This document shows, one piece after another, positions 8,522 to 52,361 of a stretch of DNA of 64,000 bases (the first letter of the stretch is position 1; each line of letters starts with the position of its first letter). The position numbers were made by a program, and so were the translations under genes. The notes beneath the pieces are model-generated. The model saw only the letters and a list, made by a program, of their open reading frames with translations, searched no databases and was not told the origin of the DNA. Location of the stretch: the NCBI GenBank assembly GCA_964016885.1, contig OZ024743.1:201934001-201998000 (forward strand), given 5' to 3'. The DNA comes from Eledone cirrhosa (Eukaryota).

Positions 8522-11500
8522 TTCCTTGAATCTCAGTCATTGATGTTGGTTAACTGGAAAGTCCGTTGGATTGAATATCAAGCCACTACCTGCAGCCTCA
8601 GATATTCAGGACGTATCGGAGGGTTCTTGCCGTTCCAAGCAAGCATGCCTTTTGAAGCGTTCCAAAAAGCGTGAAGGGGCCGATTTTCTTTAACCATCCC
8701 TGGAAACCTTTGGAGATAGTCCCCAGTGCGCCTATGACAATCGGGATCACTTTGACTTCATGGCAGTTCCAAATCCTTTTCACCTCCCACTTTAGGTCCT
8801 GGTATCGGTTAATTTTCTCCCTCTCCTTCTCTTGCACTCTCGTGTCGAACGGGCAGGCCACATCCACAATCAGGCACGATCTTTTTTCTTTGTCCACAAC
8901 CACCAGGTCAGGTCTATTGTGTTCCAGTTTTTTGTCCGTCTGTATCCTAAAATCCCACAGCACCTTCACCTGACTGTTCTCCATCACCGCCTCTGGCCTA
9001 TGCTCATACCATTTCTCAGAATGTGGTAGATTGTTTACTTTGCACAGGTGCCAGTGGATCACCCTGCCCATCACATCGTGTCTCCAGCCCTTATAGTGGG
9101 TCTGGGCTAGGTGTTTACACTCGGACACAATGTGAGCCACAGTCTCCTCTCTCTCTCCACAGATCCTGCACAGTGGGCTAGCCTCCTCCTTGTAGATATG
9201 GTGCTTCAACCACTTCGTTTTGAGGGCCTGCTCCTGCGCAGCCATTAGCATTCCTTCTGTAGCCTTTTTGAGGTCTCCTCTTCTCAACCAGTTCCATGTC
9301 TGTGGATCTCTAAATTCAGTTTTCTCAAAGAAGGTACTATGAAGGGATTTTCCCTTAAGGCTGCTCTTCCTCCTTGATGTTATTTCCTCCTTGGGTATCC
9401 CCTGGCCTACTCTCCCCTCCTTCAGTACAGCTCTGAGCATTGGCTCCTTACTATAGGTCACGTATTTGTATAGGTTGTTTTTCTCCATCTGAACACAGTC
9501 CTCTATGCTGATAAGACCTCTTCCACCCTCAGATCTCCTTAGGTAGAGTCTATCGACATCACTCCTCTTGTGGAACATGTTGTAGATAGTCAATAGCTTC
9601 CTAGTCTTCCTATCCATTTCTTTTTGTTCAGCAACATTCCATCTCAGAATTCCCGCACTGTACCTAATAATAGACACAGCTCGGGAATTTACTGCGCTTA
9701 TGGCATTTCTGCTGTTCAGATGTGACTTCAATACGCTCCTTACTCTCCGAATGTATTCAGTTCTTAACAATTCCTTCATTTTTTTGTTCTTTATGCCATC
9801 AGCCTCCAGAACGCCCAAATACTTGTATCCTTCCTCAGAGTCAATTTCCTTTATCATCTCACCTGTTGGTATCTGGATCCCGTTACTTCTGCTCAACCTA
9901 CCCCTCCTCATCACAATGACTCCACATTTACCAATACCAAACTGCATACATATATCACTGCTGAAAATACGGACAGTGTCAACAAGCACATCCAACTCCT
10001 TCTCACTTTTCCCGAAGAGCCTAAGATCGTCCATGAAGAGGAGGTGATTGATGGTAAGCTCTCCCCTTCCCAACTTGTATCCTGCTCTCACTTTTCGCAG
10101 CATAATGGTCAAGGGCATCAGGGCAAGGACAAACAACAGAGGGGACAGGCTATCTCCCTGGAAGATACCTCTCTTGATCTTCACGCTTCCCAAGGATACT
10201 CCAGTTGATGTCAACTCTGTCTCCCAGGACCCCATACTCCTGCCCAGCAACTCTCTGATGTTATCTGCCACCCTGAAGATCTCCAGGCTTTTGGTGATCC
10301 AGGAATGAGGCACCATGTCAAATGCCTTTCTGTAGTCTATCCATCCCATGGCAAGATCAGTGTGTCTCCTCCTGCAATTCCCCATTACCATCTTATCAAT
10401 AAGCAACTGGTCCTTTGTACCACGTGACTTCTTTCGGCATCCTTTCTGTTCGTCCGGCAACAAGTTGTTTGTGTGGAGGTGATGGTAGATTTCCTCAGAC
10501 ACAATGCTCGTCAACAGTTTCCACATTACGGGCAGACATGTGATAGGTCTATAGTTGGTAACATCATTACCCTTGATTCGGTCTTTCATTATCAGAACTG
10601 TGGTACCTTTTGTCAACCACTCTGGCACCTCACCCGACACCAAGCAGTCATTGAACATGGCCGTCAGCTTCGGGTGGAGGGATGTTAAATGTTTAATCCA
10701 ATACCCCTGCACACCATCTGGGCCTGGTGATTTCCAGTTGGTTAGTTTTTTGGCTTGCCCCTTAAGAGTTTCAACTGTGATACTCAAATCAGTCTGTTGC
10801 TGTGCCTGCTCACCGATCTCCCTCTGTACTGTCTCAATCCACCCTGCCTGGGCATTGTGTCTAACATCCTGCTCCCATATTCCTCTCCAGAATGTTTTAG
10901 CTTGTTCCGCCCCAGGGATCAAGTCGGTGCCTCTTTCTTTCCCCTCAAGCTGTCCAAACAGCATCTTCTGGTTGTTGTCGAACATGCGGTTCTGTTTATA
11001 CTGACTGACTCTGTTCTCGTATCGCCTGATTTTGGCACTCTTTGCTACAATGCGTTGCTTCAATTCCTCTATGATAATATTTAGCTTTTTACTCCTAGTT
11101 TTGTATTTTATTTCCAGTCTATTTTTAGTGCCTATGTTTTTTAGTGTCCCATTCAGTAGTGACTCAAGCTTTCCTATGTCATTTCTCATTTCCCCGATTT
11201 GCCCACTCAGTCGCTTCTTCCACCACGGCTCTGCTCTTTCTTGTCTGTTGTTTCCTCTCGCTTTTATACCAAGTAGTTTCCTCACCGTATTTGCTGTTGC
11301 TTTGAGGATATTGTTGCACTGGTGAAGACTCCTCGCCTCAAGGTATGGGATGACTTTGTTTACCTTAGCTGTTGTTTCTTTTAACTTTTTCCTGTCTACA
11401 AATCTTAGGTTCATAGGTCTCCCACTATCATTGTTCAACTCATCTACCACTAAATTTAGGATGTCAACCGAATCTTGTCCTAGCCCGTCAGCATTCATCT

Positions 11501-12332
11501 CCTCAGTGGCCGTATCTCTGTTCCAGGTATTATTTATCTCAGTATTCAGATCATTGTCTGCTTCGGGTGGTTCCTCCGCTCTCAGGACCTCCTCACCTTC
11601 ATTTCCCGCCGGCTCGCTTGTCTGGCATACTACACCCGCCATCTCCAAGCCATTCTCTCTGCTCAGTTCCTCCAGTTCCAGCTCGCTTATCCACCCATTA
11701 GTTCTTATTACCCGAGCCTGCCCGGCCAATTTTTGTTCATCTAATTTAAATAAACCAATCTCGTTCCAGATGTTATGCATCCGTCTCCTGTAGCCCCTCT
11801 CCTTGGGGTTACTTTTCAGGTAGCATTGCATAACAGTTCTATTCAATTCTTTCGTCCAGTTGGTTCTGGCCCCTTTCCTTCTTCTTCTTCCTCCAACATC
11901 AGCAGTATTTCGTTGACAGTCAGGTTCCTGCTGCTGAGCCAGGGGGCACCTGTTGGGTGAGAGTCTGTCACATGACGTTCTAGTCTCCATTTCACCGTTA
12001 TTCGAACTGTTTATGTTCGATATTTAAACACTCTTATCGAGGATTGGCGAATGTATGTTTACATAGCCATCTGTGGATCCGCCATCCCACTTGGCCCTTG
12101 TGTGGCATTATCACCACGCTGTATACGGACACACATAAACAAACAAACACACGGGCAGAAAGGGCCCCAAAAATGAATAAGCATAAGTTTCATTGTAATG
12201 TAGTATTCGAATGTCTGACTTAGTTTTTGTTTTTTAAGTTTTACTTTTTCCCCCCTCTTCTCTGTCCGTCCGCCTGCCTCTCTCTTCATTCTTATTTTCT
12301 TTACGTTTTGGGGGTTTCTTTTTTTGTTTTTG

Positions 12333-15208: not shown

Positions 15209-15258
<50 letters not shown>

Positions 15259-15268
15259 AACGAGTAGG

Positions 15269-15364
15269 ACCCCGACGGCTGAGCTCAAGCCGTTTAGACG
15301 GCTAATTCTGGACTAAATGAACATTTTTATCCTGGTATTTGAATAGCCGAGCTTCTCAAGGGGT
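15269..15364 (-). ncRNA. Hammerhead ribozyme, family F4, U3:A8 core variant (G12 mutated in this copy)
   Basis: ACCCC-TTGAGAA-GCTCGGCTATTC...GAATTAGCCGTC-TAAAC GGCT TGAGCTC AGCC GTC-GGGGT. Confidence 0.7.
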
Positions 15365-16199
15365 AATTCCATATATGGTCAAAGTGATTGTCACATGGAT
15401 TGGTCAAAAGTTTGTAGTTGAGACATAATAATTCTATGATGGCAATTAGTGGAGGGAAGGGGTAGCTAAACCTGCCACTAGGAGAAAGAGGGAGAGAGGG
15501 TGGAGGAGACCCATTCATGCGTTGATAGTGCCGGCTACAGTTGGGCGTGAGGTCAAAGAAGATACTAGGGAGGGGGAGGGAGAGGAAGTCGAACCAGTAA
15601 GTAGAACAATGAGGGGTAAATATATAGAAAAATACTGAGAGTGTTAAAAAGCAATTAAATGTAAAAAAAAAAAACAATTTCTGGTTACTACGACCTAAGT
15701 CTCTCACTATTGCTAGGCTAAAGAAATATACTAGGTGGGACGGAATTAAAATGAGAACCTTTTAAGAGGTATAAGTAAATATCCGAGTATATCTTACGGT
15801 GACGGGTCAACAAGTGAGGGGCCAAAATACTAAAGAGACTACCACGAAATAATAAAAGTTTCTACCCCAGGCACAAGGTCAGCAACCACCCAGTGCAAAA
15901 AAGTAAATTAATACGAAATAATAATTCAGAGACCCGAAAAAGAATACTAATACTATCTCTAAGGGTGCCGCCCACCTAGGGTGCGGCCCACCTAGTATAT
16001 TTCTTTACCCTAGCAATAGTGAGAGACTTAGGTCGTAGTAACCAGAAATTGTTTATTTTCTTTTACATTTAATTGCTTTTTAACACTCTCAGTATTTTTC
16101 TATATATTTACCCCTCATTGTTCTCCTTACTGTTTCGACTTCCTCCCCCTCCGGGTCCGTAAATAATTAATCAGCTTCTTCCGCGACTGGGGATTTAAA

Positions 16200-17210
16200 A
16201 TAACACTACAAACGTCCCTGACCCGAGTAAACTTCCTGGACGTTACCCTCGACCTCGATAATGACCTGTACTACCCATACAGGAAACCTAACGACAACCT
16301 GCACTACATCCACCGCCGATCAAACCATCCTAGGAACATCACCAATAACCTGGTTAAAAACATCTCCCTCCGCATATCCCGTTTGTCAGCTAATGAGCAG
16401 ATATTCGATGAACATGCGCCTTATTACAATCAGGCCCTCAAGCGGAGTGGTTTCCGGGAGGAAATATCCTACTGTCCAGCTCCCATTAGCGGAACCAGCA
16501 GGCGACACCGCTGCTCACGCAATGTAACATGGTTCAATCCTCCCCACAACGTCGAGGTGACAACTCCTATCGGGAAAATATTCTTTAGCCTTATTGTAAA
16601 ACAATTCCCACTACAACACTGCTACCACAAAATAATTAACAAAAATACCATCAAACTCTCTTACAGTACTACACCAAACTTTGCACAAAACATCGTCTCC
16701 TCCAACAACAAAAAACTCAACCCCGATAGAAGAAATAACCTAAATAGCAGTGGAGAGACGACCAGGAGGTGCAACTGTCCTGATGGATCCATTTTCCCCC
16801 TCGACAACAGATGCAGAGATCTTAATGTGATCTACCAGTGCAACGTGAGGACGGACACCTCCAACAAAGCTTATATAGGATTAACCGCATGTGACTTCAA
16901 GACCCGGCTATACCAACACAGACATACCTTCCGAAACCCGGCCCGGCGTCACGCCACTACACTTTCGGGCCGCATATGGGACCTCAAGGATAACAACATT
17001 ACCTATGATCTCACTTGGAGATTACTGTCCAGAGCCAACTCTTACACGGGAGGACGCCCTCCGTGCAATTTATGCTCGGAGGAGACTTTACAAATGCTGT
17101 TTTCGACGGACCAACTCCTAAACAAGAAAGATGAACGGGTTACTGCATGTAAACACTGATTGCATAGGACTTACCTCGCCGTCAAACCCCATAATGACGC
17201 GGGAGTGTAG
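16200..17210 (+). pseudogene. PLE RT thumb and GIY-YIG endonuclease fragment
   Basis: VNFLDVTLDL..PYRKPND..SNHP..WFNPP..NTIKLSYS..CNCP..VIYQCNV..AYIGLT..FKTRLYQH..TTLSGRIWDLK..CNLCSEE..CKH. Confidence 0.9.
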
Positions 17211-18303
17211 ACTAGGGCTATAACACCCCACTTGACGATTTTATAATGGGTAACCATTGCTTGCTAAGGGAGACGTAAGATCTTTTATATCTTTTTATCG
17301 CTTCCTCTATATTTCCTTCTTCTTCTTCCCTCCATCCCTCCCTAGTCCTTCCACCCCAGTTCTTTTTCTTTGTCGTCGTCTTTTCCTTGCCCACCCGAGG
17401 CAGCCCCTCGGTCCTTTGTAGCCTCACTACCCCCACCCTTCCCCTATTCTATGATAGATTTGGCCGACTCCGCTTTTTATAGCAGATGTGTTAGACCCCG
17501 GATACTTGCCCTCTTATCCGACCGCTGCCCCCTTTCCGTCTTTCTATATCTCCTAGTGCCATCTTTGCTTTAATTTCTCGTTTATCAGTATTTATTATTT
17601 TTTTTTAGGGGGGTGGGGGGGATTCTGAATTAATTTTCCGTATCAAATTTTACTTTTACTTCGTACAAGCTTTTATGTAGCACTAGAAATTTTGTATCGT
17701 GGCGGCACTCTTAGAGAGAGTATTAGTACTCTTTTTCGGGACTGAATTATTATTTCGTATTAGTTTACTTTTTTGCACTGGGTGGTTGCTGGCCTTGCGC
17801 CTGGGGTAGAAACTTTTATTATTTCGTGGTAGTCTCTTTAGTATTTTGGCCCCTCACTTGTTGAACCGTCACCGTAAGATATACACGGTTTATTTACTTA
17901 TACCTCTTAAAAGGGTCTCATTTTAATTCCGTCCCACCTAGTATATTTCTTTAGCCTAGCAATAGTGAGAGACTGAGGTCGTAGTAACCAGAAATTGTTT
18001 ATTTTTTTAACATTTAATTGGTTTTTAACACTCAGTATTTATCTATATATTTACCCCTCATTGTTCTACTTACTGTTTCAACTTCCTCCCCCTCCTCCTC
18101 CCTAGTATCTTCTTTGACCTCACGCCCAGCTGTAGCCGGCACTATCAACGCATGAATGGGTCTCCTCCACTCCCTCTCCCTCTTTCTCCTACTGGCAGGT
18201 TTAGCTACCCCTTCCCTCCACTAATTGCCATCATAGAATTATTGTCTCAACTACAAACTTTTGACCAATCCCTGTGACAATCACTTTGACCATATATGGA
18301 ATT

Positions 18304-18399
18304 ATCCCTTGAGAAGCTCGGCTATTCAAATACCAGGATAAAAATGTTCATTTAGTCCAGAATTAGCCGTCTAAACGGCTTGAGCTCAGCCGTCGGGGT
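18304..18399 (+). ncRNA. Hammerhead ribozyme, family F4, U3:A8 core variant (G12 mutated in this copy)
   Basis: ATCCC-TTGAGAA-GCTCGGCTATTC...GAATTAGCCGTC-TAAAC GGCT TGAGCTC AGCC GTC-GGGGT. Truncated copies at ~49124 and ~52203 read CGAAAC. Confidence 0.7.
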
Positions 18400-18406
18400 C
18401 CTACTC

Positions 18407-18453
<47 letters not shown>

Positions 18454-19462: not shown

Positions 19463-19655
19463 ATAACGAAGGAAATGTGGTAAGGAACCGGTGGACCATA
19501 ACGCACCAGAGTACTTAATACTTAGGGTAGTAGAGTAGGTAATAGGAAAGAGTAGGATCCCGACGGCTGAGCTCAAGCCGTTACGACGGCTAATTCTGGA
19601 TATGCGAATTAGCCGTTGAAAAGGCCTGAGCTCAGCCGTCGGGCTCCTACCTGTT

Positions 19656-19871: not shown

Positions 19872-19927
19872 ACTGCCTGATGAGGTCATAGCCATTCAAT
19901 GGCTATCATCGAAATATATATAGCAGT
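19872..19927 (+). ncRNA. Type I hammerhead ribozyme, family F3, in a ~165 bp insertion between (TA)n tracts
   Basis: ACTGC-CTGATGA-GGTCATAGCCATT C AATGGCTATCATC-GAAA TATATA TA-GCAGT; canonical core, palindromic stem III. Confidence 0.88.
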
Positions 19928-20008: not shown

Positions 20009-20132
20009 AACGAGTAGGACCCCGACGGCTGAGCTCAACCCATTTCGACGGCTAATTCTGGACTAAATCTAAAGTATTGTGTACTTTGGTACGTTATGGT
20101 CCACCTGGTTCCTTACCACATTTCCTTCGTTA
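20005..20132. mobile_element. Miniature F4 insertion: inverted pLTR end joined to tail fragment
   Basis: 20005-20068 matches 15256-15318; 20070-20132 matches the F4 tail ending TTCCTTCGTTATA. Confidence 0.8.
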
Positions 20133-20420: not shown

Positions 20421-21941
20421 TATTAAAATAACAGATTAAAGTTTAAGCAAAGAATCGCTGCTTTCACCCTTAACGGGATCTTCTGAAACTAACAAAGTCA
20501 ATCTGTAAACGCAGAACAGGATATTTCAAAAAACGTTGCAACCGGAGGAAGACAGGAAGACGATACTTTGGTTTGTGGAAACGTTCGCTGGCAAAGAACG
20601 GGAAAAACGAATAATACGTCATTAATAGGAGCGGTGAAAAGCAATTACGCGCAAAGACAGAACCGCGTTTATGGTATAAAAGAGGTCGTAGACTAATGTT
20701 CTCTTAGGTGGTGCATAGAGACATTCTCTGGCAATGAACGAAAACACGAAGATAATACGTCATATGTGGAGCGTGGAGAACAATAGCACGCAAAGACAAA
20801 ACCACGTAAATGGTATAGCAGAAGTCGTAGACTAAAATCCTAACTAGGAAACCAAATGAATCTCCACTACAGAGTTAAGAACAAAGTAAATAAATACAAT
20901 ACAGAAGTAATAGAAATAAATAAATACATACATGCAAACGAATACGTACATACACAAGCATACGCAAAACCTTACCATAGGTATACAGAACCACGCACAT
21001 ATAAATATGTGTGTGTGTGTATGCGTGTATACAAATAAATAAATAATTATATAAACGTATATAAATAAATAAACACGTATATAACAAGCGCACATACATA
21101 CCTACATATAAATACACGAATGTTCGGAGACGTAAGTCAACTAAAACAAGAAGTACACATATACACGCACCCACCATACGTACGAACCTGCATACTCACA
21201 CAGACGCGAAACTCCCGTATACACATAGCCAAACCCTATGTACCAGGATATATAAAATTATACGCCATAACAATCAAATATAGGTGCGAGAAGTTATACG
21301 TACCTTCACAAAACATACGGGTAATATATACCTACCTATGCAAATAAGTAAAGGAATAAATAAAACATATAGTTAGCTCCCACATCAAGACGTGAAATAT
21401 CCACGTATAGATCGTACTATCCGTTAGGGTATAACGTGCGGCTGTAATACAGGAAAGTTTTGTGCAATTTATGTTTACAAGCCGAAATTGCCTCAGATTT
21501 TTTGTTTAAGATGTGGTCTGTGGCGTAGAGTATTTCCAGGGCCTCAGCGGCGCAGAGGTCACATAGTCTTTTATTTCCGTTATACGATCTAGCCCTAGCT
21601 AGGATCTCCCAGTGTAACTTATATTGGGTGTGGTTGTCTTTTAGACTCCAGATATAACCTGAAAGTGACGTCATATTCCTTCTTAGAGGGTAACGAAAAG
21701 AATGGGTATGCATGTAAAGACGCTGCTTGAAACTATTGGCGGTTAACCCTATGTAGGCCCTACGGGACGTGGGTGTTACAACCTTACATTTGTAGACAAT
21801 GTTACTAGAGAGGCATTTCCCGGATAGGGGCAATCAGCCCGATTCCTACAATTACAGTTAGTACTAACTACAGGGTTGCACGTGTTCCTACGGCTAGGTA
21901 GTTTAGCTAAATTTGAAGCTATGATGTTATGTGCAAGGTTA
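20421..21941 (-). mobile_element. 5'-truncated Naiad-type PLE, family F5 (GIY-YIG 21417-21941, 3' UTR/pLTR)
   Basis: CNC..CPLSGKCLSSNIVYKCKV..AYIGLTANSFKQRLYMH..CDLCAAE..CKH; homologous to 54000-54890 and 56346-56925. Confidence 0.9.
20431..20506 (-). ncRNA. Hammerhead-like motif, family F5, U4A core (CAGAAGA)
   Basis: ACAGATTGA..AGTTT-CAGAAGA-TCCC GTTAA GGGT-GAAA GCAG CGATTCT TTGC TT-AAACT.TTAATCTGT. Confidence 0.7.
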
Positions 21942-23637
21942 TCGTAATTGTAATTGCCCTATTAAAACTAAATGTCCTCTCAATAACCATTCTCTTGATA
22001 CAAACTTAGTCTATAAATGTAAGGTTATAACTGATACCAATTCCTTTACCTATTTCAGTTCCACTTCCACTTCCTTCAAAGCCAGATTTTCTAATCACAA
22101 TTCGTCTTTTAAATACCAACTTAAAAGAACTAACACGGCACTCTCGGAACTCATATGGTCCTTGAAAGACAAACATATTAACTATAACATCTCTTGGAGG
22201 AAGGTTTGTTCTGCCTTTCCTTACCTGAATTCTTCCCTATCCAGAACATTTAATCTCTGCCTAGCCGAGAAATTTACCATTATATCTAATTTCAATTCTA
22301 TAATAAATAGACGCACGAATTTATTTTCTCTCTGCTTGCATAAATTCCATAGAACATTCCATAAATTATACAGCTAATATCTCAATACCTTACTAGTTTA
22401 AAATCCTTTTTCTCAAAGGCTTATATATCTTTTACAAATATACCCATCTTTCTACCTTATTTCAATATTATATATTATATAATACAATTCACCCATTCTA
22501 TATCATTCCTCTTTATCATTTTCCTTTCTTCCTTTTTTCTTTTCTTTTTAATTTCTAACCTCTAATCTGTACTTTTTCTTCCCAACTACTTCTCAATTCT
22601 TATTATTACTCACCACAACATTATCCATTCTTCCATCTTTCCTTATATCATTGGCCATAAAAATTATTTTTTTAATACATTATAATATTACCATTAGAAG
22701 TCCTTCGTAAACATTTATTTTTTGACGTTAGATTTTTTTTCTTCCTTAAATTTTGTATATCTCTTCCATCCTTTCATGCTCATTTTAAACTACTACTTAA
22801 TTTGACTTTTACATATTACAATACATAGAAACAAACTTAAACCCTAACTAATTTCTTTTAATATATTATATTATTACCATTAGAAAATATTTCGTAAACA
22901 TATACTTTTTGATGTTAGATATTTTCTTCCTTAAACATTCTTTTCTTCTTTCTTTCCGCGCTCATTTTAAACAAACTATTTACGTACACATATTACATTA
23001 CATAAAAACAAACTTAAACCCTAACTAATTCCTCTAAATTCATAACTCATTCATTCTTCTCCTACTTTTCACATTATATCCCTAATATCATTAATATTTT
23101 TATTTTAATAATACATATTAATACATTCTTTTCCTCGCACATATTATTAAACACTTCAATATACAAACCTTAATTTAATACTATTCTTAATCCCTTTTTC
23201 TTCATGCATAAATCTCATTAACTTTTAATTTCAAAATCTTTAAAATTATCTATTATCTTCCAACAGCTTATTAATTTCTCTCTGTGAGACAATATATATT
23301 TTTTTCTCAGTTGTAAAGGCTATCTCTCTCTCTATCACCCATCTCTCCTCCTCTCTCATCCGTCCTTCTTATACACCTCCCCGCCATCCTTTACTCTCAT
23401 TTCTTCCTCTTCCTTACCTTTTTCAACGCCCCACTCACTTTTTCCCAATCTCATACATCAATCTTAATTTATTTTTCATATGTTGATTGAAAACTTGACT
23501 ATTGACAAGTGTTTTTTAAGCTTCATATAATGTCTCCCTATTTTATCTGATGAGAACGCAGATATCATCCCATGATGATACTTGTTTTTGAAATGCGCAT
23601 AATAAAATAGTGGGAACACTTTTAACCACCTTTTGAT

Positions 23638-25388: not shown

Positions 25389-28300
25389 TTACAGACACAT
25401 ACTCAGAGAAGGCCCATTCATTCGGGCCATACTTGCTTCTCTCACCCATCTCTCAACAAAATGCTGGGAAGAGAGCACTTCCCTCTGTACCCTGATTTTC
25501 CTTTTCAAATGGAATTTGAAAAAAATAATTAGGGCATCACCGAAGAGGTTAGTGCTCGTCTTCAGCCCTTTCAAACGTGTCCACCATACTATCTCTTTCG
25601 CCATGGCCACCAGACAGATAAAAACTGCCTGCCCTTCCCGGCTAAAGGAAGAGGGCGGGGCAATCCTCACGATGGACTTAGCTGATAGCTGGATTCGTCC
25701 TACACGTGACAGCAGGTGTTCGACATAAACCCACAAGTCAGCAATGCTCGGACACTGGACGAGTGCGTGCAGGACCTTTTCGTCGCCCTGCGCGCATCTC
25801 GGACATGCCCGGCTGACGGCACCTCCGTGCCTGTAGAGTTTATCCCGAACTGGCAAAGCTCCCCTGTAGCACTGCCAGGCCAGGGATTTCTGGAAGTTGT
25901 CCATAGGCCCCGGCCCGAAAGTTCTTCCGAAGAGATTGGCTAGTTGATTTTCGTCGACGCCTAGAGTTTCTCCAAGTACGTCGTCGCTCTTCCCCCCCCC
26001 CCACTAAACCTCTATAAAACGCCAAGGTGGAGTTTCCACCGATCACATTGCCCGATTGGTTGAGGGCTGTGAGCGCCTGAAGACATTCCAGTCTCCAAGC
26101 GCTCCCACTCGGTCTTCGCTTGACCCAGGACTGCAGCTCCCTCAAGGAGACGAGCTGGGGAAAAATGTGTCTAGCAAACGACGACCACACCTGATCATCG
26201 TCGAGGAAGAGGTGGAGATGTCGTAGCATGAGCGCGTGTCTGCGCATCATCAGCCACGGCATGCCCAGCCCTCCATGTAGCGGGTGTTGACAGCAGATGG
26301 ACCGCCTGACCATCGGAGCGCGTCCCTTCCACAAGAAGCGAAAGAGCAAACGCTCCAGCGCAGTCAGGCGAGGCTTAGGACAAGGTACGACGGTCAGGCG
26401 GTAGTAGATGACGGACGCGATGTACGCGTTAGCCACCTCCGCTCGACCTTTCAGGGATAGTTTCCTCTCCGCCCATTTCTGGGTGAGAGAAGCCACCCTG
26501 CTCGTCACCTCGTCCCAGTTTTTGTCCGTCTGGAGGTCCGGACCGAACCAGACCCCTAGCAATTTAACCGGTCCGTCCGTCCAGCATCCGACGACGCTGT
26601 TGGACGGCATGGACCTGCCTCTCCAGGTGCCGAGCTGCAGGCCCACTGACTTTTCCTGGTTGATCATTGCTCCTGTCACCGCTTCGTATTCTCGTAGTGT
26701 AGTGCCGATCGCCTCGATGTGTTTGGCGTTCGACACCACTACGGTGACATCGTCCGCATATGCTGACACGGATCTTCCGCATCCTAGTTCGCGCGGGACG
26801 CGCCTCAACGTCTCCAGTTTGTGCAGTAATGGCTCGAGAGTCAATACGTACAAGAGGGACGAGAGGGGACATCCTTGCCAGACCGAGCGCATGATGTTGA
26901 ACGATTCCGACAGGTGACCGTTCACTCTCACCACAGAGCAGATGTCGCTGTGCATGGCAGCGATCCAGCCTCTGAAGACGGGCCCAAAGCCAGCCGCCTT
27001 CAGGACTGCCGCTAGGTAACGATGGTCGACCCTATCGAAAGCTTTCGACTGATATAAATTGATCAAGGACCCACCCGTGCCAGGTTCCTTAGCTACCCTC
27101 TCTACGATGTATCGCATGAGGTGGAGGTTGTCGTGGATGGATCTGTCGGGAATGGCGCATGTCTGCGCCTCTCCCACCAGACCACCAACGACAAGCGCGA
27201 ATCTCTTTGCTAGCACCTTGGCCAAAATCTTGAACTCTGTGTTTAGAAGAGTTATGGGCCGGAAATTATCTATGTTATCCCCCTTGTTCGGATCCTTTTT
27301 CAGCAGTGCCACCGCTCCTCGGCTCACAGAACTGGGAATTCTCCCGTTCTGTTTCCAGTTGCAGTAGACGTCCGCAAAGAGGCCTCCGAACAGGTCTGGC
27401 ATCTGTACGTAAAGTTCATAGGGCAGACCATCCAAACCAGGCGATTTACCCCTTGTGAAGCCAGTCATTGCCTCCCTTACTTCAGCGGCTGTTATCGGCT
27501 TTTCGCAACACCTCGCCTCAGTGGCCGAGAGCCGCGGCAGTCCGTCGAAGTAGACACTAAAGACCATCCCTCGACCCGGCCCACCGCTGCCCCCGAACAG
27601 CTGAGCGAATTGTCGCTGAAAAGTTTCACACATTTGCCCGGGATCGAGTAGCATGCGCCCGTCGTGGTCCACCAAAGACCGGATCGTGGCTTTGTTGTCA
27701 CGACGCGCCTCCGCCACTCGGGCCCATTGAACGGCTTTCGTCCCCTCGTGTCTGAGAGCACGCACCCTCGCTCTGACAACGCAGCCTTCGTGCTTTGCAT
27801 TGAAGAATTGGTCAAGGGCCAATTTCGCCGCAAGCACGTCGGTCGCAATGCCTTTGCTAAGCGCCTCGTCTAATTTTCTAACTAGTTCTCCCTCTGCTCT
27901 ATTTTTCTCTATTGCTAAAGCCTTACTAAACCTAATGGATTCTATTCTAATCGCTCTTTTCAGAGCAAACCACCACTTGTTGTTGACGATGGCCCCCGTC
28001 AACGCCCGCTTAACTAGTTCGCTAATCCGGTCTCTGTAGGCCTTGCGCGCTGGTAAGGACGCGTTTAGCTTCCAGTAGCCGGGTCCTCGTCTAAGAAGCC
28101 TATCTAATTCAAGCACACAGATCACGAATTTGTGGTCCGTGTAGCTGACTATCTTGAATTGTGGACAGCCTATTCTAGACCTATCTATTTCCCTACAAAA
28201 TACTCTATCTAGATATGATCTGGATGACCCTATGCGATTTGTCCAAGTCCACATTAGCACATTCGGGAAATCCAATCGGTACCTGTCAGACAGTTAAAAA

Positions 28301-28811
28301 CGCCTGAGCAGGTTGGTGAGGCTCTTGCACCCTCCCACCCTATCCGCTAATCCCACACTGTCCCAGCGTGCATCTAAGATCCCGTTCCAGTCGCCCACTA
28401 ACACTAAAGAGCAGGACGTTCCAAGAAAGGTCTCCAGACGCCGGAAGAAATCAGGCCGCCCGGCTCCTGTCGGGCCGTAGACGGCCACTAGCCTCAAAGC
28501 TTGCCCGTCTCCGCTGGTCACGTCCAGCACCACCAGCTTACCCTCTGGGTCCAGGAAGATGGCCCGTATGGCGAGATCCAAACCTCTCCGAAAAAGCACA
28601 GCAACTCCTCCCCCCGATCCAGGACGGCTGGGAGATGCGTACACATCGTAGCCGCCAAAGTCGGTGCGAAGGCCCGTGCTTCGGAGATTCTGGTCTCGCT
28701 GATGGCCACTACATCTATGTTTAGTGACCTGAGGTCGTTGAGCAGGTGACCCTGCTTCCATGACGACCCCAAGCCACGCGCATTTATGCTGCCTATTCTG
28801 AGTGAGGTCAT
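25389..28811 (-). pseudogene. Tx1/L1 ORF2: apurinic endonuclease, reverse transcriptase, C-terminal Cys/His finger; about 3 frameshifts
   Basis: IGSINARGL, ISET, LVGDWN, SYLDRVF, TDHK, GPGYWKLN, KSPGLDGLP, FRPITLLN, QGCPLS, AYADDVT, CPRC..HALVQC, split over four ORFs. Confidence 0.93.
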
Positions 28812-28846
28812 GTTTAAAATAGAGTGGAAAAGATGGGAAAGACCAC

Positions 28847-30956
28847 TTACCGTACTTTTGGTAGAGGAGGGATGGTTTTTACATCCCTTTTCACTTGATC
28901 GTCTGGTGAAGGGACCGTTGAATCGTCCCTTCGGCTGGTCGTCGGCTCTTCTAAGAGAATGTCTGAATATACTCTTCGATTGATAGTTCCTCCTAGGTCC
29001 CTGAAATCACCAACTGCGTTGGGGAATTTCGTTTTAATGTTTGTGTATTGTTTCTGTGCTATTTTTAGCAGTCTTATGTTAGTTGGCGTTTTGATTGGTG
29101 CTGGTATTATGTAGTCGTGTTGTGAAATGTCTGTGTGTTTAATTATGTAAGTCATTAGTTTCTTGTTGTGTGTATTTATTGCCGTGCATTTGTTTTTCTG
29201 GGGGTGGGGTGTGGTTCTGCTATTTTCTTGTCGTTGTTGCTGGGTGTGTGTGTTTTGTTGTTGTGTTTGCGATGTTGGTGCTTGTGGTGGTGGTGTTGAA
29301 GGTGTTGTTGGCGGTGGGGTTGTCGCCGGTGGTGATGGTGGTGCTAGTGTGGGTGGTGATGGTGTTGGTGGTATTGCTGCTGTGGGTCTCTTTGCAGTAG
29401 ACTTTACCCTTTTCTCATTTCTTTCCTCCCTTTTCAAAGGCGACGATGCGCTGCTTCTGCGTTTGTGCCTTCTTACGACCTTTTGCCATCTCTCTCCCAC
29501 CTCACACTCCATGTCTGATTCTGTGAGGTCGGGGAGGGGTACCAGCTCCACTCTTTCACTTGTTATTGTTGGTGATGTTTGCACTGGAGTCTCTGTTGCA
29601 GCTGCATTTGGTATTGCTGTTGTTGTTAATATTTCCACTGCTGCTGCTGTTTTTGATTTCCGTGGAGTGGGTATGGGTGCCACGGACCTATCGTTCCTGG
29701 TTGCCGCTCGTCCTGTTGCTGGTAGCCGTGGAGCCGGTTTCGGAAGGAGGGGGGTTTTCTCCTTTCTCAGGGTCTTCTCGTTGCAGAAGGCCCTGAGGTG
29801 AGTCTTCGATCCACAGCGAAAGCATTTCGGGCATTTTCCCTCAACACTTATGGGCAGTTGAGTGCCGTTATCGAAGTCTATCACATCCGGGATTGCTTCG
29901 ATGCACTCCTGGTTGGTTTGGATTAGCATCTCAATGGAGGTGCCGACCCAATCTTCTCTTACTTTTTTCTGTACTTGCAGTACAGTTGTTTTGTCCTCGA
30001 TTCCGACGAGGACAGACGCGGCCAGCCAAGAAGGGGCCATCCGGGGGGGGGGGGGGGGGACGTGGGTCAGTTTGACCCTCACAATTATTTTGCCCGCAGT
30101 AGGAGGGCACCAACACCATTTCCTCGCTCCTTAGGGTCACTACGGATTGGGCCTTTGCCTCCTGGGGTGTGGCAAAAAGTACGTCTACGGTGGCATATTT
30201 TTTGCCTCGGGTGATGTGCGTTTTCCGCTGCCACACAGACCCCAAGGCTCTTTGTATTTGAGCCTCTGTGGCTCTTTCCACCCTACGGGATTTTGTACTT
30301 ACTGTACGGTACGTGACCGTACAGTGCTGTTGGGTTTCGAAAAATTTTTCCGCTGCCTTGCAGATTGCTCGGTGTCCAGTCTTTGTCACCATCTTCTTCG
30401 CTTCCTCTAATTCCTCATTTGTTATGAGGATTGTTTCCAAGTTTTTCGCAATACCTGCAAATGAGATTGGTTTTTCTTTGCTGCTGTTGTTGTTGTTGTC
30501 GTCAGAGCTGCTGTTACTTTTGTTGTTGCTGCAGGTACTACGACTACTGCCTCCGCCGCTGTTGCTGTGGTTGTTGTTGGTGTTGCTGCTGCTCATGCTG
30601 TTGTTGTTTATGCTGCTGGTGATGCTGTTGCGGCTGTTACTGTTGTTTTCATTGTCACTGTTGCTGTTGTTATTACGGCTGCTACTGCTATTATTCCTGA
30701 AGTCAGACGAATGAACTGGGTTTTCGTATTTCCCGCACACCTGTTTCGTCGCTGTCGTCGTTGTCGTGGAGAAACCTTGCACGCTTTGCACGAGACTTTT
30801 CTTTTCTTTCGTCGTTTGCGAAAGAGAAGGGAGGTAGAGAGACACATTTAAAGAAGGGAGGGAGAGAGACAATCTTCTCTCTGCTGTAGTGATGATTGAG
30901 GAAGAAGAAGACGGAATGAGAGGGAGTGACCTATGAAATTTCTTTTTCGTAGCCAT
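28847..30956 (-). pseudogene. Tx1 ORF1 (gag-like) with zinc knuckle; frameshift at or near the G-run ~30043-30059
   Basis: Asn/Ser-rich N terminus, ISFAGIAK motif, CFRCGSKTHLRAFC (CX2CX4HX4C), WQKVVRR, Pro/Thr-rich tail; lies directly upstream of ORF2. Confidence 0.85.
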
Positions 30957-33129
30957 GTTGTTTTTTTTTGTTTAAAATAAATATTGGGTACAAAACCCCA
31001 ATAAGCAGTTATTTAACCCCGAAGGGCCAAATAACGGGCAGAAAGACCCCTCTCACGAGGAGGAGGGTGTTTTTGTCTACAAGTTCGTTAAAGTTTTAAA
31101 CAATTTACAATTGTTATAGTGTTCAAAATTTACAATACCTTACAGAGCCGAGCCTCCGTCAACCATAGCATTCAATAATAATAATAATAATAATAATAAG
31201 AAGAAGAAGAACGTATTAAATCTATTATTTTTGAATAAGCGAAAGCTGTTTTGAGATATGTATGGCATCAGTTCAATTCTCACAGCCCTTCTTTATCTTC
31301 AGAAATGTCTCGTAGATAAAGCACATTGAGATTTGTGTCAATAAAAGAAAATATTGCAATCGTTTTAGTGTAAAATGTCATAAATATGCATTATTAACAA
31401 AGTCTGGTGTGGATATGTAAGTCAAAATAATGTAAATATTGCAATTGAAATACTCACGCACACACACGCACGTGCACACACACACTCACATGCACACATA
31501 CCCTCTCCATATATATAGAATATCTCTCCCTCAAATGTTTATATTTCATTGATATAGTTAATTTCCACTCAGATATAGCATATCATCTATAACGAGTAAC
31601 GGGAATGCTTCTACATGGTTGCTTAATCTACTAGGACGGCCAAACATATCTTCTTCAAAGCACATCCATTATTGCCTTATGACAGTGGAAACATTGGATA
31701 ACATAGATCGTGATATACTAAAATAATAGTCTATTTATCTTCAGAAAACAAAGAGAGAATGAGGGAATAAACCTGACTGCAACGCTTTTGGTCGTATACT
31801 TCCTACCCAGGGTTAATTTGGAGCTAAATCAACAACAATACTAGTTATACAGATACAACGAGGTAGCATCTACATGGTTGCTAGCAATAGTAGCCACATC
31901 CCTCTATTGTCTCTAATATTGAGGGATATACTAGATAAGTGTCTCCCAGATGCAATATTGCTGAAAAGAAAATACAAAACACTGGATCGTCATCGCTGAA
32001 ATCTTTTGGTGAAACGTCAGCTCAGTAAGGTTTGATTTGGGTCTAACTAAGAACAAAAACAACAAAAAACCGTTAGTAGTAAAATTCCTACCTAGTAGAT
32101 AATGAAAACCACGTACACATTGAATGCACTCTACAAAAACCTTGTTTAGAATAAATCAAATGCTAGTTAATAACAGATATACAAATAATTTAGTAGATCC
32201 AGAAAAAATTCAAAACATAACTATAGCCGACAACACCGAATGAAAACCAAATACACTTTAGTTATTTAACAATGCAACACAACATGCATTGCATCCAATT
32301 ATAAACTTGTATCAATAATATATTACAAATCACAGATATTAAAATCGCTTCATTAAGAGCAGCCCACACTCCTGCGAACCTGCATACCGTTGAATAAACT
32401 TTAAACGGCAAATAAAATTGAGAAAATCGATTGTAAACATGGACAATGTAAACAATTATGATTCTAGCTTTACACGTTATAGATTTATATATTTATATAT
32501 TTATTCCTGTTTACTTTATATACTAATTTCTGAAGAATAGCATCGTTGGTTTTCGATTGGACCTCCATCAGTTTCGACGATATGTTCTCAAGTTCTTCGG
32601 TCAATGGAACAACGTATTCGTTAAATGAAAATATTTCACAGACACATGTGTACCCATAAAGATGAGAGAGATGCAGAATATCACATTGTGAAACAAGGCT
32701 GATTCTTTGAAATATTGGAACGACTCATCAAACAGATGTCCAAACAACGTATTTCAGACTGCGGAAACAATTCTGAAATGCACAAGAGAAAAAGTACAAT
32801 TGAACGATTGCTATTGTTATTGTTTAGCTTTAGATTCAACTTTGTTTGGCTAGTCTAATGATTAAACATACCAGCTATGAACATAGTGTCGGTTTATTTC
32901 AGATGTCGTGATTCTAGGACTATAATTCTGCAACGTCTCCTTCCTCAAATATAGAGTGCGTTGTGAGGGAGATGTGTCTGCTTTTCTAGAGGATTGGATG
33001 ACTGAATAGTATTCCCCTCGTTACAACAAGAAAATACTTATACCCACTGCAACTACAGTTATCTCACCGGAGAAAGAACGCCAATGTCTTGAAATTAACT
33101 TTGTATAAAATACTAGTATTATTTTTATT

Positions 33130-38744: not shown

Positions 38745-41420
<2,676 letters not shown>

Positions 41421-45824: not shown

Positions 45825-47840
45825 TCACGGAGGTTTGAATCTTATGAATTTAGTGGCAATTCTATGTCTGCAGAAGATAGATCTTTCTAACTTATTAAGT
45901 AGCCTTTTTACATTTTTGAGGATATACAACAGCTCAAGATCACATAGCCCGCAGTGGGACATCCCTGTACTATAGGTTTTAGCAGCCGACAACTTCGACC
46001 AGTTGATACTGTAGTTAGTGCTGCTGTCCTTCAGTTCCCATATTTTTTTGGCGAGGGTTGTGGAACCCATAAGTGCACGGTTTTTCATTGAGTGCCTGTG
46101 CACATACCATCTTATTTTAAAAGAACCCGCGGTAGATCCTATGTAATTCCAGGTGGAGTTACCCAAGATGACCGTGCACATGTACACTAGGCTCGAATCG
46201 AGACATCTGTTCGCCAATGGGCACCTATCTGGTAGGTGACAGTTACAGTTTGAGGCGCTATTTTGTGCAGCTTTTACATTCCTGTTTAGTACTCTGTTAT
46301 AAGTGGGTTGTGATATATGCCCAATGGGGTTTTCCTGCTGCGCGTTTGTATGCGCTTGTGGTTGTGATGTTTTGATGTGTTTGTGCTTATAATTTGGTGC
46401 TACGTTATGTATAGGTGCAGTTGATTCACTAGAGATATTTCTGTGGTTGATCTTGCGTATGTGTGATTCTATGTTTGCTGCTGTTGAGTATGAGAGTTTT
46501 ATAGTAGATCTATTGAGTATTTTGTGATATCTATGCGAGATAGGGAAGTGTTTATCTATTAGTTTAAAGAATGTAGAGGGCAGTCTAGTTTTTATAGAGG
46601 AGTTGAATATTGGGTTGAACCATAGGTATTTCCTTTGTCTGTTTCTTCTATTGTTTCTTGGGTTTACGTTATTAGTGTTTTGGCCGTTTACTCCAGGTGT
46701 TACGTGTCTAACCCTATGTCTAGTCAAGTTATTTCTATTATTATGTGAGCGGTTGGAGTAGTAATTACTAGGATTGTTTACGTTGTCTTTATTCACTATA
46801 TACTGCAGTTTATCTTTATGACCGGCCCTACGTAATGCTGCATTATAATAGTCAGCATGCTCGTTAAAGATTTCTAGGTTTGAGGATAAGCGGAATATTC
46901 GGAGGGATATACTACGTGCTATGGATTTAATTATGGATTTGGGGTGATTTGAGTTGTAACTAATGTAGGCAAGATTTTCATTATTTTTGTGGAAAGGTTC
47001 TATTAATCCAGTATTTAGATTTAGAGTCACATCTAGAAAATTTACCTTCTTATGGTTCAGTTCGTAGGTAATACTTAGGCCTAGTTTTTTGAAGAATATT
47101 CTAATATTTTTTCTTAGTCTTTCCATGCTCTGGTTGTTTAGGTTCCTAGCTATAAGTAACGTGTCGTCCCTATAAATTCCTCCTTGGAGATTACTGAATT
47201 CCTTATGTAGGTTGTGTGCTATGAATAGCCCCACGATATCTGTGATTTGCGCAGAATCATTTGATCCCATTGTTATATCGAAGCTATTTATTCTATCCTT
47301 TCTTACCCAGTAGCTATTTTCAAATTTTATGATAGTCCTTCTAGCCGCTATTATTATTTCAATTTCATCATGGGTAAGATCAGAGTTATTTTGGGCAAAT
47401 ATAAGCGCCTTATCTAGGGTAGCTGGGGATATGGATGCATAGTAGTCGTCTATATCAAATTGTATGAAGTTACACGTCTCCCTATTTTGTATTTTATTGA
47501 ACCATTTAATTGCCTCGTTAGTGTTGCCCCATAAACTGATTTCTAGTTTACCCTTTATTTGTGTGATTACCCTATCTAGAATGTTCTTGCTAATTTTACC
47601 TATGTCTGACTTGGATGGGCATATTAATCTAATGGTGGGATTAGTTTCAAAGTTATTTTTGTGATCCTTCAGGTTAAATGTTGGGTTGCACGGAGTTAGC
47701 GGTTCGGTCCTATCTGGAATTCCGAGTTTATTAACTATCTTGAGGCCCTCCACTTTAATGCTGGTGAGTGTAGATTCATTTGTTTTTTTATATTTTTTAT
47801 GTAGTTCACGCTGGATAAAGCTATTGTATGCGTTAATGTG
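45825..47840 (-). CDS. PLE reverse transcriptase and GIY-YIG endonuclease (stop-free, N-terminally truncated at the inversion junction)
   Basis: LKDHKNNF..RLICPSKSDIG, FIQFDIDDYYASI, FDITMGSND, GIYRDD, NFLDVTLNL, SNHP, WFNP, CNC..CPL..LVYMC..YIGST..CGLCDLE..CRH; frame stays open upstream of 47753 to ~47840. Confidence 0.93.
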   Translation of the reverse strand, partial: HINAYNSFIQRELHKKYKKTNESTLTSIKVEGLKIVNKLGIPDRTEPLTPCNPTFNLKDHKNNFETNPTIRLICPSKSDIGKISKNILDRVITQIKGKLEISLWGNTNEAIKWFNKIQNRETCNFIQFDIDDYYASISPATLDKALIFAQNNSDLTHDEIEIIIAARRTIIKFENSYWVRKDRINSFDITMGSNDSAQITDIVGLFIAHNLHKEFSNLQGGIYRDDTLLIARNLNNQSMERLRKNIRIFFKKLGLSITYELNHKKVNFLDVTLNLNTGLIEPFHKNNENLAYISYNSNHPKSIIKSIARSISLRIFRLSSNLEIFNEHADYYNAALRRAGHKDKLQYIVNKDNVNNPSNYYSNRSHNNRNNLTRHRVRHVTPGVNGQNTNNVNPRNNRRNRQRKYLWFNPIFNSSIKTRLPSTFFKLIDKHFPISHRYHKILNRSTIKLSYSTAANIESHIRKINHRNISSESTAPIHNVAPNYKHKHIKTSQPQAHTNAQQENPIGHISQPTYNRVLNRNVKAAQNSASNCNCHLPDRCPLANRCLDSSLVYMCTVILGNSTWNYIGSTAGSFKIRWYVHRHSMKNRALMGSTTLAKKIWELKDSSTNYSINWSKLSAAKTYSTGMSHCGLCDLELLYILKNVKRLLNKLERSIFCRHRIATKFIRFKPP

Positions 47841-48569: not shown

Positions 48570-48926
48570 TTGTGTATAGTGGTAGCTATGGTGCTTCCGT
48601 AGGCGGTATGCCAAAATTAGCACTCGATATTCATCAGAGTAGAGTGTACGAATTATAAAAAAAAAACGAAAAATCCGTGATGCATCTGGACTTAGTTTAT
48701 TTCGTGTTACAAATGTTTCGCGGCCATGTAGCTCGAGTCATGGTCCTTGTATGGATCTGGCTGATTCTACTTCTGCGGGTTCTTTCAGACACGTCTGTTA
48801 TGTCCGGAGCAAATTTTATCATATAAAATTTGCTCCGGACATAACAAACGTGTCTGAAAGAACCCGCAGAAGTAGAATCAGCCAGATCCATACAAGGACC
48901 ATGACTCGAGCTACATGCCGGCGAAA
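48570..48926. mobile_element. Near-perfect 211 bp palindrome (48716-48926) plus ~145 bp one-sided tail, family F10
   Basis: Arms of ~104 bp around a 3 nt loop at 48820-48822; (TA)n flanks. Confidence 0.9.
48703..48793 (-). ncRNA. Hammerhead-like motif, family F10, core CTGAAAGA, extended stem II
   Basis: CGTGT-CTGAAAGA-ACCCGCAGAAGTAG...CTACATGGCCGC-GAAAC ATTT GTA-ACACG; base of stem II is imperfect. Confidence 0.5.
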
Positions 48927-49016: not shown

Positions 49017-49197
49017 ATAACGAAGGAAGGTTGGTAAGGAACCAAGTGGACAATAGCGCACCAGAGTACTCGATACTGTAGGTATTAGAGTGGGTAATAG
49101 GAAAAGAGTCAGGACCCAGAACCCGTTTCGACAATTAGTTCTGAACAGCTGTCGAAACGACAGGCGCTCAGCCGTCTGGGACCTGACTCTTTTTCTA
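49017..49197. mobile_element. Miniature F4-related two-armed insertion with tail
   Basis: Tail ATAACGAAGG..CACCAGAGTACT..; arms GAAAAGAGTCAGGACCCAGA / TCTGGGACCTGACTCTTTTTC. Confidence 0.8.
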
Positions 49198-52166: not shown

Positions 52167-52361
52167 TAGGAAAAAGTATGACCCCGACGGCAGAGCTCAA
52201 GCCGTTTCGACGGCTATTTCTGGAACCAAAATAGCCGGCGAAACGGCTTGAGCTCTGTCGTCGGGGTCATTCTTTTTCCTATTACCCACTCTACTACCCT
52301 AAGTATTGAATACTCTGGTGCGTTATGGTCCATCTGATTCATTACCACAATTCCTTCGTTA
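52167..52361. mobile_element. Miniature F4 two-armed insertion, tail on right arm
   Basis: TAGGAAAAAGTATGACCCCGACGGCAGAGCTCAAGCCGTTTCG / CGAAACGGCTTGAGCTCTGTCGTCGGGGTCATTCTTTTTCCTA plus tail to TTCCTTCGTTATA. Confidence 0.88.

Follow-up and report, generated by a model that had tools for sequence, protein, structure and literature searches.

An insertion in the genome of Eledone cirrhosa, with a hammerhead-like motif near each end in opposite orientations, raises the question of whether a ribozyme whose core departs from the canonical C3:G8 pair is a working part of a mobile element or a remnant of one. The core reads TTGAGAA, placing U3 opposite A8, and the original prediction took this for a compensatory exchange that argues for function, in a copy that had itself lost activity through a change at G12. 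We consider it probable that the motif belongs to a high-copy Hydra-clade Penelope-like element (PLE) as its type I hammerhead, likely a weak or conditional ribozyme that is under selection and is not needed for copying, and that the insertion is a truncated copy whose ribozyme was likely inactivated by the change of G12 to T. The evidence comes from the window, which is the whole stretch of 64,000 nucleotides that was analysed, and from genome-wide counts taken on the 3.0-Gb assembly.

The insertion occupies 15255-18409 and consists of a Hydra-clade PLE truncated at its 5' end, together with an inverted partial copy; (TA)n runs flank it on both sides. Its parts, and four further short inserts discussed below, are as follows, in coordinates of the window.

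15255-15972, minus strand: left arm, an inverted 5'-truncated copy of the element 3' end, 95.4% identical to 17701-18409 over 715 nt
15269-15364, minus strand: type I hammerhead of the left arm (core 15359-15353, T12 at 15296, C17 at 15274)
15984-16152 (169 nt), plus strand: additional direct copy of the 3' UTR at the inversion junction, duplicating 17930-18095
16152-17204, plus strand: 5'-truncated ORF, residues 366-716 of the 719-aa family protein, 92% identical to the intact ORF of locus L122
17205-18303, plus strand: 3' UTR or pseudo-LTR, which evolves fast along the lineage
18304-18399, plus strand: type I hammerhead of the right arm (core 18309-18315, T12 at 18372, cleavage site after C17 at 18394)
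18364-18380, plus strand: alternative hairpin, a predicted off-fold that would sequester positions 12-14
18400-18409, plus strand: end of the element at (TA)n, including the 3' strand of the internal loop in stem I
19547-19650: palindromic insert
20009-20131: palindromic insert
49085-49195: palindromic insert
52170-52280: palindromic insert

The left arm terminates at the putative first RT start site of the family, adjoining (TA)n, as most family copies do; a tail of about 80 nt, present at one end of many family copies, is absent from this one. The piece at the inversion junction, 93.5% identical to 17930-18095 and 95.9% to the left arm, may be the product of a template switch. The truncated ORF retains the RT thumb, the CxCx5C linker (its third C lost here) and the GIY-YIG endonuclease. 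Since the RT active site is missing and a premature stop stands at 17157-17159, the window copy is dead whatever its ribozyme does.

The stems, the TTGAGAA core and the GUC site of the original prediction were all recovered in the arms by a motif scan. In the right arm, stem I pairs 18304-18308 with 18395-18399 and continues through an internal loop; its ATCCC differs from the predicted ACCCC, which holds for the left arm. G10.1 (18316) stands opposite C11.1 (18371) as an isolated pair; a 2x1 internal loop separates it from stem II (CGGCTA, 18319-18324, with TAGCCG, 18364-18369), which is extended by TTC/GAA with one bulged T. Loop II (18328-18359) has the expected length of 32 nt and is predicted to contain an inner stem of its own, and stem III (18375-18380 with 18388-18393) closes a near-palindromic hairpin, 18375-18393. 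Membership of the hammerhead class rests on three helices around the core, open at stem I, with stems 87-100% paired across 27 distinct rows, and on U4 G5 A6 N7, A9, G12 A13 A14, A15.1-U16.1 and an NUH site in all ten subfamily consensuses; the window copy deviates from this required core at G12, which is T in both arms. Exact pattern counts across the genome bear out a family consensus with UUGANAA and GAAA.

The motif is not a chance occurrence, since exact genome-wide matches to its 3' half exceed 36,000 against 0 for a reversed control. An Rfam search (E<=1) returned no hammerhead family among the 150 of 154 matches listed, which were repeat-driven miRNA models only; the window copy has T12 and a long loop II. 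Whole-motif folding energy was no better than that of shuffles (z 0.17, -0.24 and 0.06). When both strands of the window were scanned with relaxed type I criteria, four motifs came up: the two arms and two unrelated canonical ones with CTGATGA. The latter, at 19872-19927 (+) and 23542-23608 (+), are hammerhead-like motifs of other families, with a short palindromic helix III, and each lies close to a (TA)n run.

The nature of the carrier is clearest at locus L122, where two motifs in tandem delimit a unit of 3,118 nt with an intact 719-aa ORF, its start codon following the cleavage site at a distance of 191 nt. This is a single ORF, RT followed by a C-terminal GIY-YIG and with no N-terminal endonuclease, and its protein carries RWR at residue 37, DKT at 117, YRDD at 348, CxCx5C at 572, the GIY-YIG-like motif at 592, CxxC at 670 and CxH at 698. 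These motifs are common to 89-119 of 120 homologues, with RW[KR] in 114 and DK[TS] in 118. The insertions themselves show a (TA)n target, inverted or tandem partial copies and a tail at one end. In the published description of the clade, RW[K/R], DKT rather than DKG, CxCx5C, GIY-YIG, CxxC and CxH together with (TA)n are given as its defining traits (PMC8557442), and on motifs and target the carrier can be assigned to the Hydra clade. Pfam gave nothing useful for five ORFs of the window and no hit for the intact L122 ORF, so that GIY-YIG was recognised by motif, and a PDB search with the same ORF was empty. A PLE of the Naiad/Chlamys kind, with an N-terminal endonuclease and no canonical hammerhead, was ruled out by the C-terminal endonuclease found here, as was a non-LTR retrozyme (a short non-coding tandem repeat), the unit being 3,118 nt long and coding and the short copies being inverted half-motifs.

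The change at position 12, the residue G12 of which we take to be the general base of the hammerhead, was found in both arms as predicted (18372 and 15296). Exact 23-nt matches genome-wide carry G at this position in 36,243 cases, T in 120 and A or C in 704, with C12 at about 127 as estimated from 18 C in the first 100 listed of the 704 A/C matches. T12 is ordinary decay, at the frequency of neutral transversions, and because the family has G12 the window copy is very likely dead, in line with the inactivity originally proposed. A subfamily amplified with a dead ribozyme was considered and rejected, T12 being scattered over several subfamilies, mostly in one arm, at about the frequency of C12. 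The truncated copies at 49124 and 52203 that had been set against the window copy do read CGAAAC, but they are short palindromic inserts of older relatives outside its subfamily: the first groups with an old sibling family, and the second resembles older subfamilies by eye.

The two arms had also been held to share one source. T12 is the only rare variant common to both; the other four shared differences are common markers of a sub-subfamily, and 25 and 15 columns are private to the two arms. Two independent hits are very unlikely at a frequency of 0.3%, and at least 4 double-T12 pairs occur among the 100 T12 matches listed, so inheritance from a shared template is the simple reading. To that extent the claim stands; later gene conversion also fits, for the last 104 nt (18306-18409) are identical between the arms whereas the remainder differs by 4.6%. 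That T12 arose in one arm after insertion and was then copied by conversion, or homogenised in assembly, is in our judgement less likely than not. In its favour, about 5 arm differences would be expected over 18306-18409 at 4.6% and there are 0, in a stretch that was, however, picked after the fact. In 26 further loci with two arms, divergence between the arms is 3.0% in the motif part and 4.1% upstream, which argues against any general homogenisation, and the 4 double-T12 pairs fit occasional changes before insertion equally well.

Positions 3 and 8 present a different picture. When both were left free, 3,931 matches were obtained, the first 100 of which all have A8, with U3 in 76 and C3 in 24; full-core matches number 5,011, divided into 3,681 with U3:A8 and 1,330 with C3·A8, and the 43 non-A8 matches include 6 C3:G8 and 15 U3·G8. 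The Watson-Crick pair between these positions is thus U:A in the window copy and is replaced by a C·A mismatch in 1,330 members of the family. As an argument for selection, the U3:A8 majority supports the original reading; the pair is not obligatory in the family, nor, on the trees described below, was it required for mobilisation. The proposed joint change of C3 to U and G8 to A did not hold within the family, where U3 was gained on an A8 background according to the trees described below; relative to the clade, whose hammerheads in File S2 of PMC8557442 are all CUGANGA, U3:A8 does amount to a double change. A C3:G8 sister family in this genome was rejected within the patterns used, 128 loose matches being mostly chance junctions. 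In an old sibling family whose stem II carries a compensatory change, 25 of 30 loci have U3:A8. Sequencing run X19 gave C at position 3 in 24% or 42% of depth, depending on the reference, and may derive from the assembly's own sample, so it is not an independent count.

U3:A8 itself is already known. It has been published for PLE hammerheads, with about 1,300 hits in the Cercyon elements of Schistosoma (PMC4209133), and elsewhere as a natural U3-A8 covariation, cited there as previously shown to be active in vitro (PMC3088659). In a Schistosoma hammerhead, a CUGANAA core showed no activity when assayed co-transcriptionally (PMC8490949). We found no published report of an amplified C3·A8 core, on which the kinetic literature on 3-8 exchanges could bear.

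The order in which these states arose was read from two trees. The 173 full-motif arms gave ten groups, all small (5-38 arms), with 3 arms unclassified, and the first tree, on UTR and motif, used the 100 arms with enough UTR. It forms a ladder from A (U3) through B, C, D and E (C3) to F, G, H and I (U3), in which the young U3 groups F-I hold together with support of 100/95 and the window arms fall in F, the group in which U3 first reappears. The second tree, on 420 nt of ORF DNA from 38 arms with the ribozyme columns excluded, was rooted with one long-branch copy of the old family and one copy of group A; it gave the same order (100/97 for the split that separates the old family and A from the rest, 95/92 for D with the young groups, and 93/88 for the young groups), and monophyly of the C3 groups was rejected at a p-AU of 0.0099 with one misaligned long row dropped. 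Median UTR divergence from the group consensus was 0.061, 0.047, 0.043 and 0.037 in the C3 groups and 0.023, 0.031, 0.037 and 0.019 in the young U3 groups; it peaks in B and C and reaches its minimum in I, which sets the direction of the ladder. The C3 groups were coding masters whose ORF remained under purifying selection, as the ORFs of B and D differ by a pS of 0.123 and a pN of 0.013, a pN/pS of 0.11 over 371 codons, set against a control (private changes in single D copies) that was not fully neutral at about 0.2-0.7. The family therefore likely kept multiplying for a long time with a broken C3·A8 pair before U3:A8 returned, and the passage of the master lineage from U3:A8 to C3·A8 and back, which these trees imply, would mean that mobilisation tolerated a broken core pair.

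The rest of the motif did not drift during this phase. Over 300 nt of UTR, B and E differ by 0.265, while the motif has changed at none of 8 columns of the 5' core, none of 5 of the 3' core and none of 31 in the stems. Across the ten subfamily consensuses positions 4, 5, 6, 8, 9, 10.1, 11.1, 12-15.2, 16.1, 16.2 and 17 are invariant, partly by construction because the retrieval patterns fixed much of the motif, whereas N7 occurs in three states and variation affects 26 of the 39 columns of loop II. In an unselected check of the 5' half, all 15 arms retrieved by the 3' pattern alone (8 U3, 6 C3 and 1 G3) fit known groups; contigs from run X19 showed no other common core change, yet missed the known N7 variant as well. 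The conservation of the other core bases, together with the return of U3, points to residual selection on the fold.

Stem II covaries among subfamilies, with four pairs changed on both sides, one of them in a single copy, and none of 500 shuffles reached the cell count of the hammerhead fold in the 27 distinct natural rows, whose relatedness inflates the figure. The alternative fold had no covariation signal in the same 27-row alignment (119 of 500 shuffles). That an inactive hairpin could compete, as was proposed from the sequence, is borne out in prediction, where the two folds are near-isoenergetic: hammerhead versus alternative, in kcal/mol, is -27.5 versus -28.2 for group F, -26.9 versus -27.6 for the left arm and -23.0 versus -25.9 for the right arm. 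The alternative is the predicted minimum in 7 of 10 subfamily consensuses; the hammerhead-fold probability, from predictions that omit tertiary contacts, is 0.96 in the old family, 0.98 in A, 0.09 in D and E, and 0.75 in I, and the alternative fold is most prevalent in the C3 groups D and E (0.83). For stem III the predicted energy is -30.7 as a homodimer versus 2 x -7.1 for two hairpins, and a stem III palindrome favouring the homodimer is likewise found in dimer-type PLE hammerheads.

The ends of the insertions show what was copied. One end of a copy usually lies about 19 nt downstream of C17 and the other about 99 nt downstream, and since both points lie beyond the cleavage site, the copied template spans that site, either uncut or re-joined. 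The tail between the two end points (L122:2990-3090) is about 80 nt, roughly twice the 30-40 nt quoted for PLEs. At the other extremity, among the first 30 arms on one contig (C1), 22 break off within the 30 nt that precede the 3' strand of stem II (median 10.5), and of the 34 inverted pairs in the first 100 matches, 28 are separated by at most 40 nt; further upstream the break-off rate is 0.0013 per nt (22 events, with 27 of the 30 arms measurable), at least 30-fold lower. Most family copies are palindromic inserts of about 130 nt in (TA)n, with the inversion point in hammerhead loop II, and the old sibling family shows the same break-off pattern. Such inserts could pass for MITEs or miRNA hairpins. 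A second cleavage, at a GUC within loop II, was rejected as the source of the break-off, the ends being spread over 3-17 nt with no single point. A near-perfect long palindrome by (TA)n at 48716-48915 belongs to an unrelated family and is probably a short inverted insert of the same kind.

A mechanism consistent with these ends would have RT begin at two internal sites on opposite target strands, yielding the two inverted arms, while the alternative fold, nearly equal in energy, would hold the ribozyme inactive during copying of the RNA. Cleavage could then serve to process read-through transcripts, cutting them at a unit's 5' end, perhaps aided by the element protein or by RNA dimers formed through the palindromic stem III. 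Parts of this scheme (two internal RT starts, an uncut template and protein-assisted cleavage) are carried over from the anole element to this clade by analogy. In that lizard PLE, hammerhead mutants were without effect on insertion in vitro and cleavage needed protein (PMC11167929). A ribozyme that is gated and dispensable for copying would explain both the tolerated mismatch and the retained anatomy; the 3' half of the motif could instead owe its conservation to a role as the protein-binding site. More tentatively, and with somewhat less than even confidence, we suggest that one autonomous lineage records a full compensatory cycle, from U3:A8 to C3·A8 (four subfamilies and over a thousand full-core copies, built on a core inactive in other hammerheads, while selection went on acting on the remainder of the fold) and back to U3, that the bistable fold and palindromic stem III form a cleavage switch gated by protein or dimer, and that the same structure sets the break-off site of three quarters of reverse transcripts and so produces the tiny palindromic inserts.

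The same observations have to be weighed under two other explanations. The ribozyme might be essential and C3·A8 active in this setting, through a C·A wobble, the long stem II or help from protein or dimers, with no phase of low activity. The 1,330 C3·A8 copies speak for this, as does the constancy of the other core bases and stems in the C3 phase while the UTR drifted by 0.265, the chance of no change being about 0.03 for 11 core sites and 0.005 for the 17 sites of the 5' half. We nevertheless judge it unlikely: the CUGANAA core failed to cleave in the Schistosoma hammerhead (PMC8490949), single mutants at 3 or 8, albeit with different substitutions, abolished the lizard PLE hammerhead even with protein (PMC11167929), groups D and E are those predicted to spend most time in the alternative fold, and U3 came back and was kept in all four young groups.

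Alternatively, the motif might be a catalytically dead relic that serves the element protein only as a structural signal for binding or RT start, with position 3 drifting neutrally. Such a relic would accommodate the mismatch tolerated across four subfamilies, the lone G10.1-C11.1 pair, the frequency with which the off-fold is the predicted minimum, and the fact that the uncut site always lies inside insertions and most copies retain the 3' half only. It is harder to reconcile with a 5' core half that lies upstream of the part kept in short copies and is conserved in the exact hammerhead pattern, N7 free while U4-G5-A6 and A9 are fixed, with stem II covariation that fits the hammerhead fold and not the off-fold, and with the two oldest groups, which fold as hammerheads with a predicted probability of 0.96-0.98; we regard it as improbable. 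A weak or conditional, selected hammerhead remains our preferred reading.

Much of this anatomy has precedents. Hydra-clade PLEs (Craig et al. 2021, PMC8557442) share with the present family the single ORF with C-terminal GIY-YIG and the same motif set, in an order that matches by eye in the supplementary proteins, (TA)n targets, an inverted 5'-truncated copy, a tail at one end and a type I hammerhead near the 3' end, with a lone G10.1-C11.1 in some members. The hammerheads of its File S2 have CUGANGA, a loop II of about 3-10 nt and a short stem III, unlike the U3:A8 or C3·A8 core, 32-nt structured loop II and 6-bp stem III with palindromic loop found here; the longer tail (~80 versus 30-40 nt), a unit slightly above 3 kb and tens of thousands of copies are further differences from the elements of that report, which calls the function of PLE hammerheads unclear and the ribozymes possibly passengers. 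The Cercyon hammerheads of Schistosoma mansoni (Cervera and De la Pena 2014, PMC4209133) likewise have a U3-A8 core in the pLTR, a short stem I, long stem II, palindromic helix III and inverted pairs, but no stable helix III and short loops, and the accessible part of that account describes neither an amplified C3·A8 state nor an order in time. Natural U3-A8 variants (Perreault et al. 2011, PMC3088659) show the same covariation in another element, with no amplified mismatch cores reported in the portion of the paper available. In the Poseidon PLE of the green anole (Frangieh et al. 2024, PMC11167929), two internal RT starts downstream of the hammerhead define the tail, both target strands are extended and uncut RNA is copied, as is proposed here, but the core is canonical C3:G8 and overlaps the ORF start, and the element belongs to another PLE clade.

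The kind of hammerhead and its core swap are therefore known, and what is new is the long-loop bistable anatomy and the mismatch detour. Descriptor searches that demand CUGANGA and a short loop II miss a family of tens of thousands of copies. The family supplies one ribozyme in ten natural versions that can be ordered in time, among them a long mismatch phase during which the ORF stayed selected, so that activity can be set directly against copy output, a natural series for testing whether a ribozyme matters to its element.

The window holds other, more diverged traces of mobile elements. Hydra-like PLE ORF remnants lie at 45831-47834 (-), 53673-54502 (+), 21450-21830 (-), 21943-22368 (+) and 40485-41165 (-), with 34-54% identity to the L122 protein, and a 671-aa frame at 45825-47840 is still open. 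By eye, 8598-12023 (-), with an open 1,141-aa frame, and the multi-ORF region at 25389-30971 (-) resemble non-LTR retrotransposons of other kinds.
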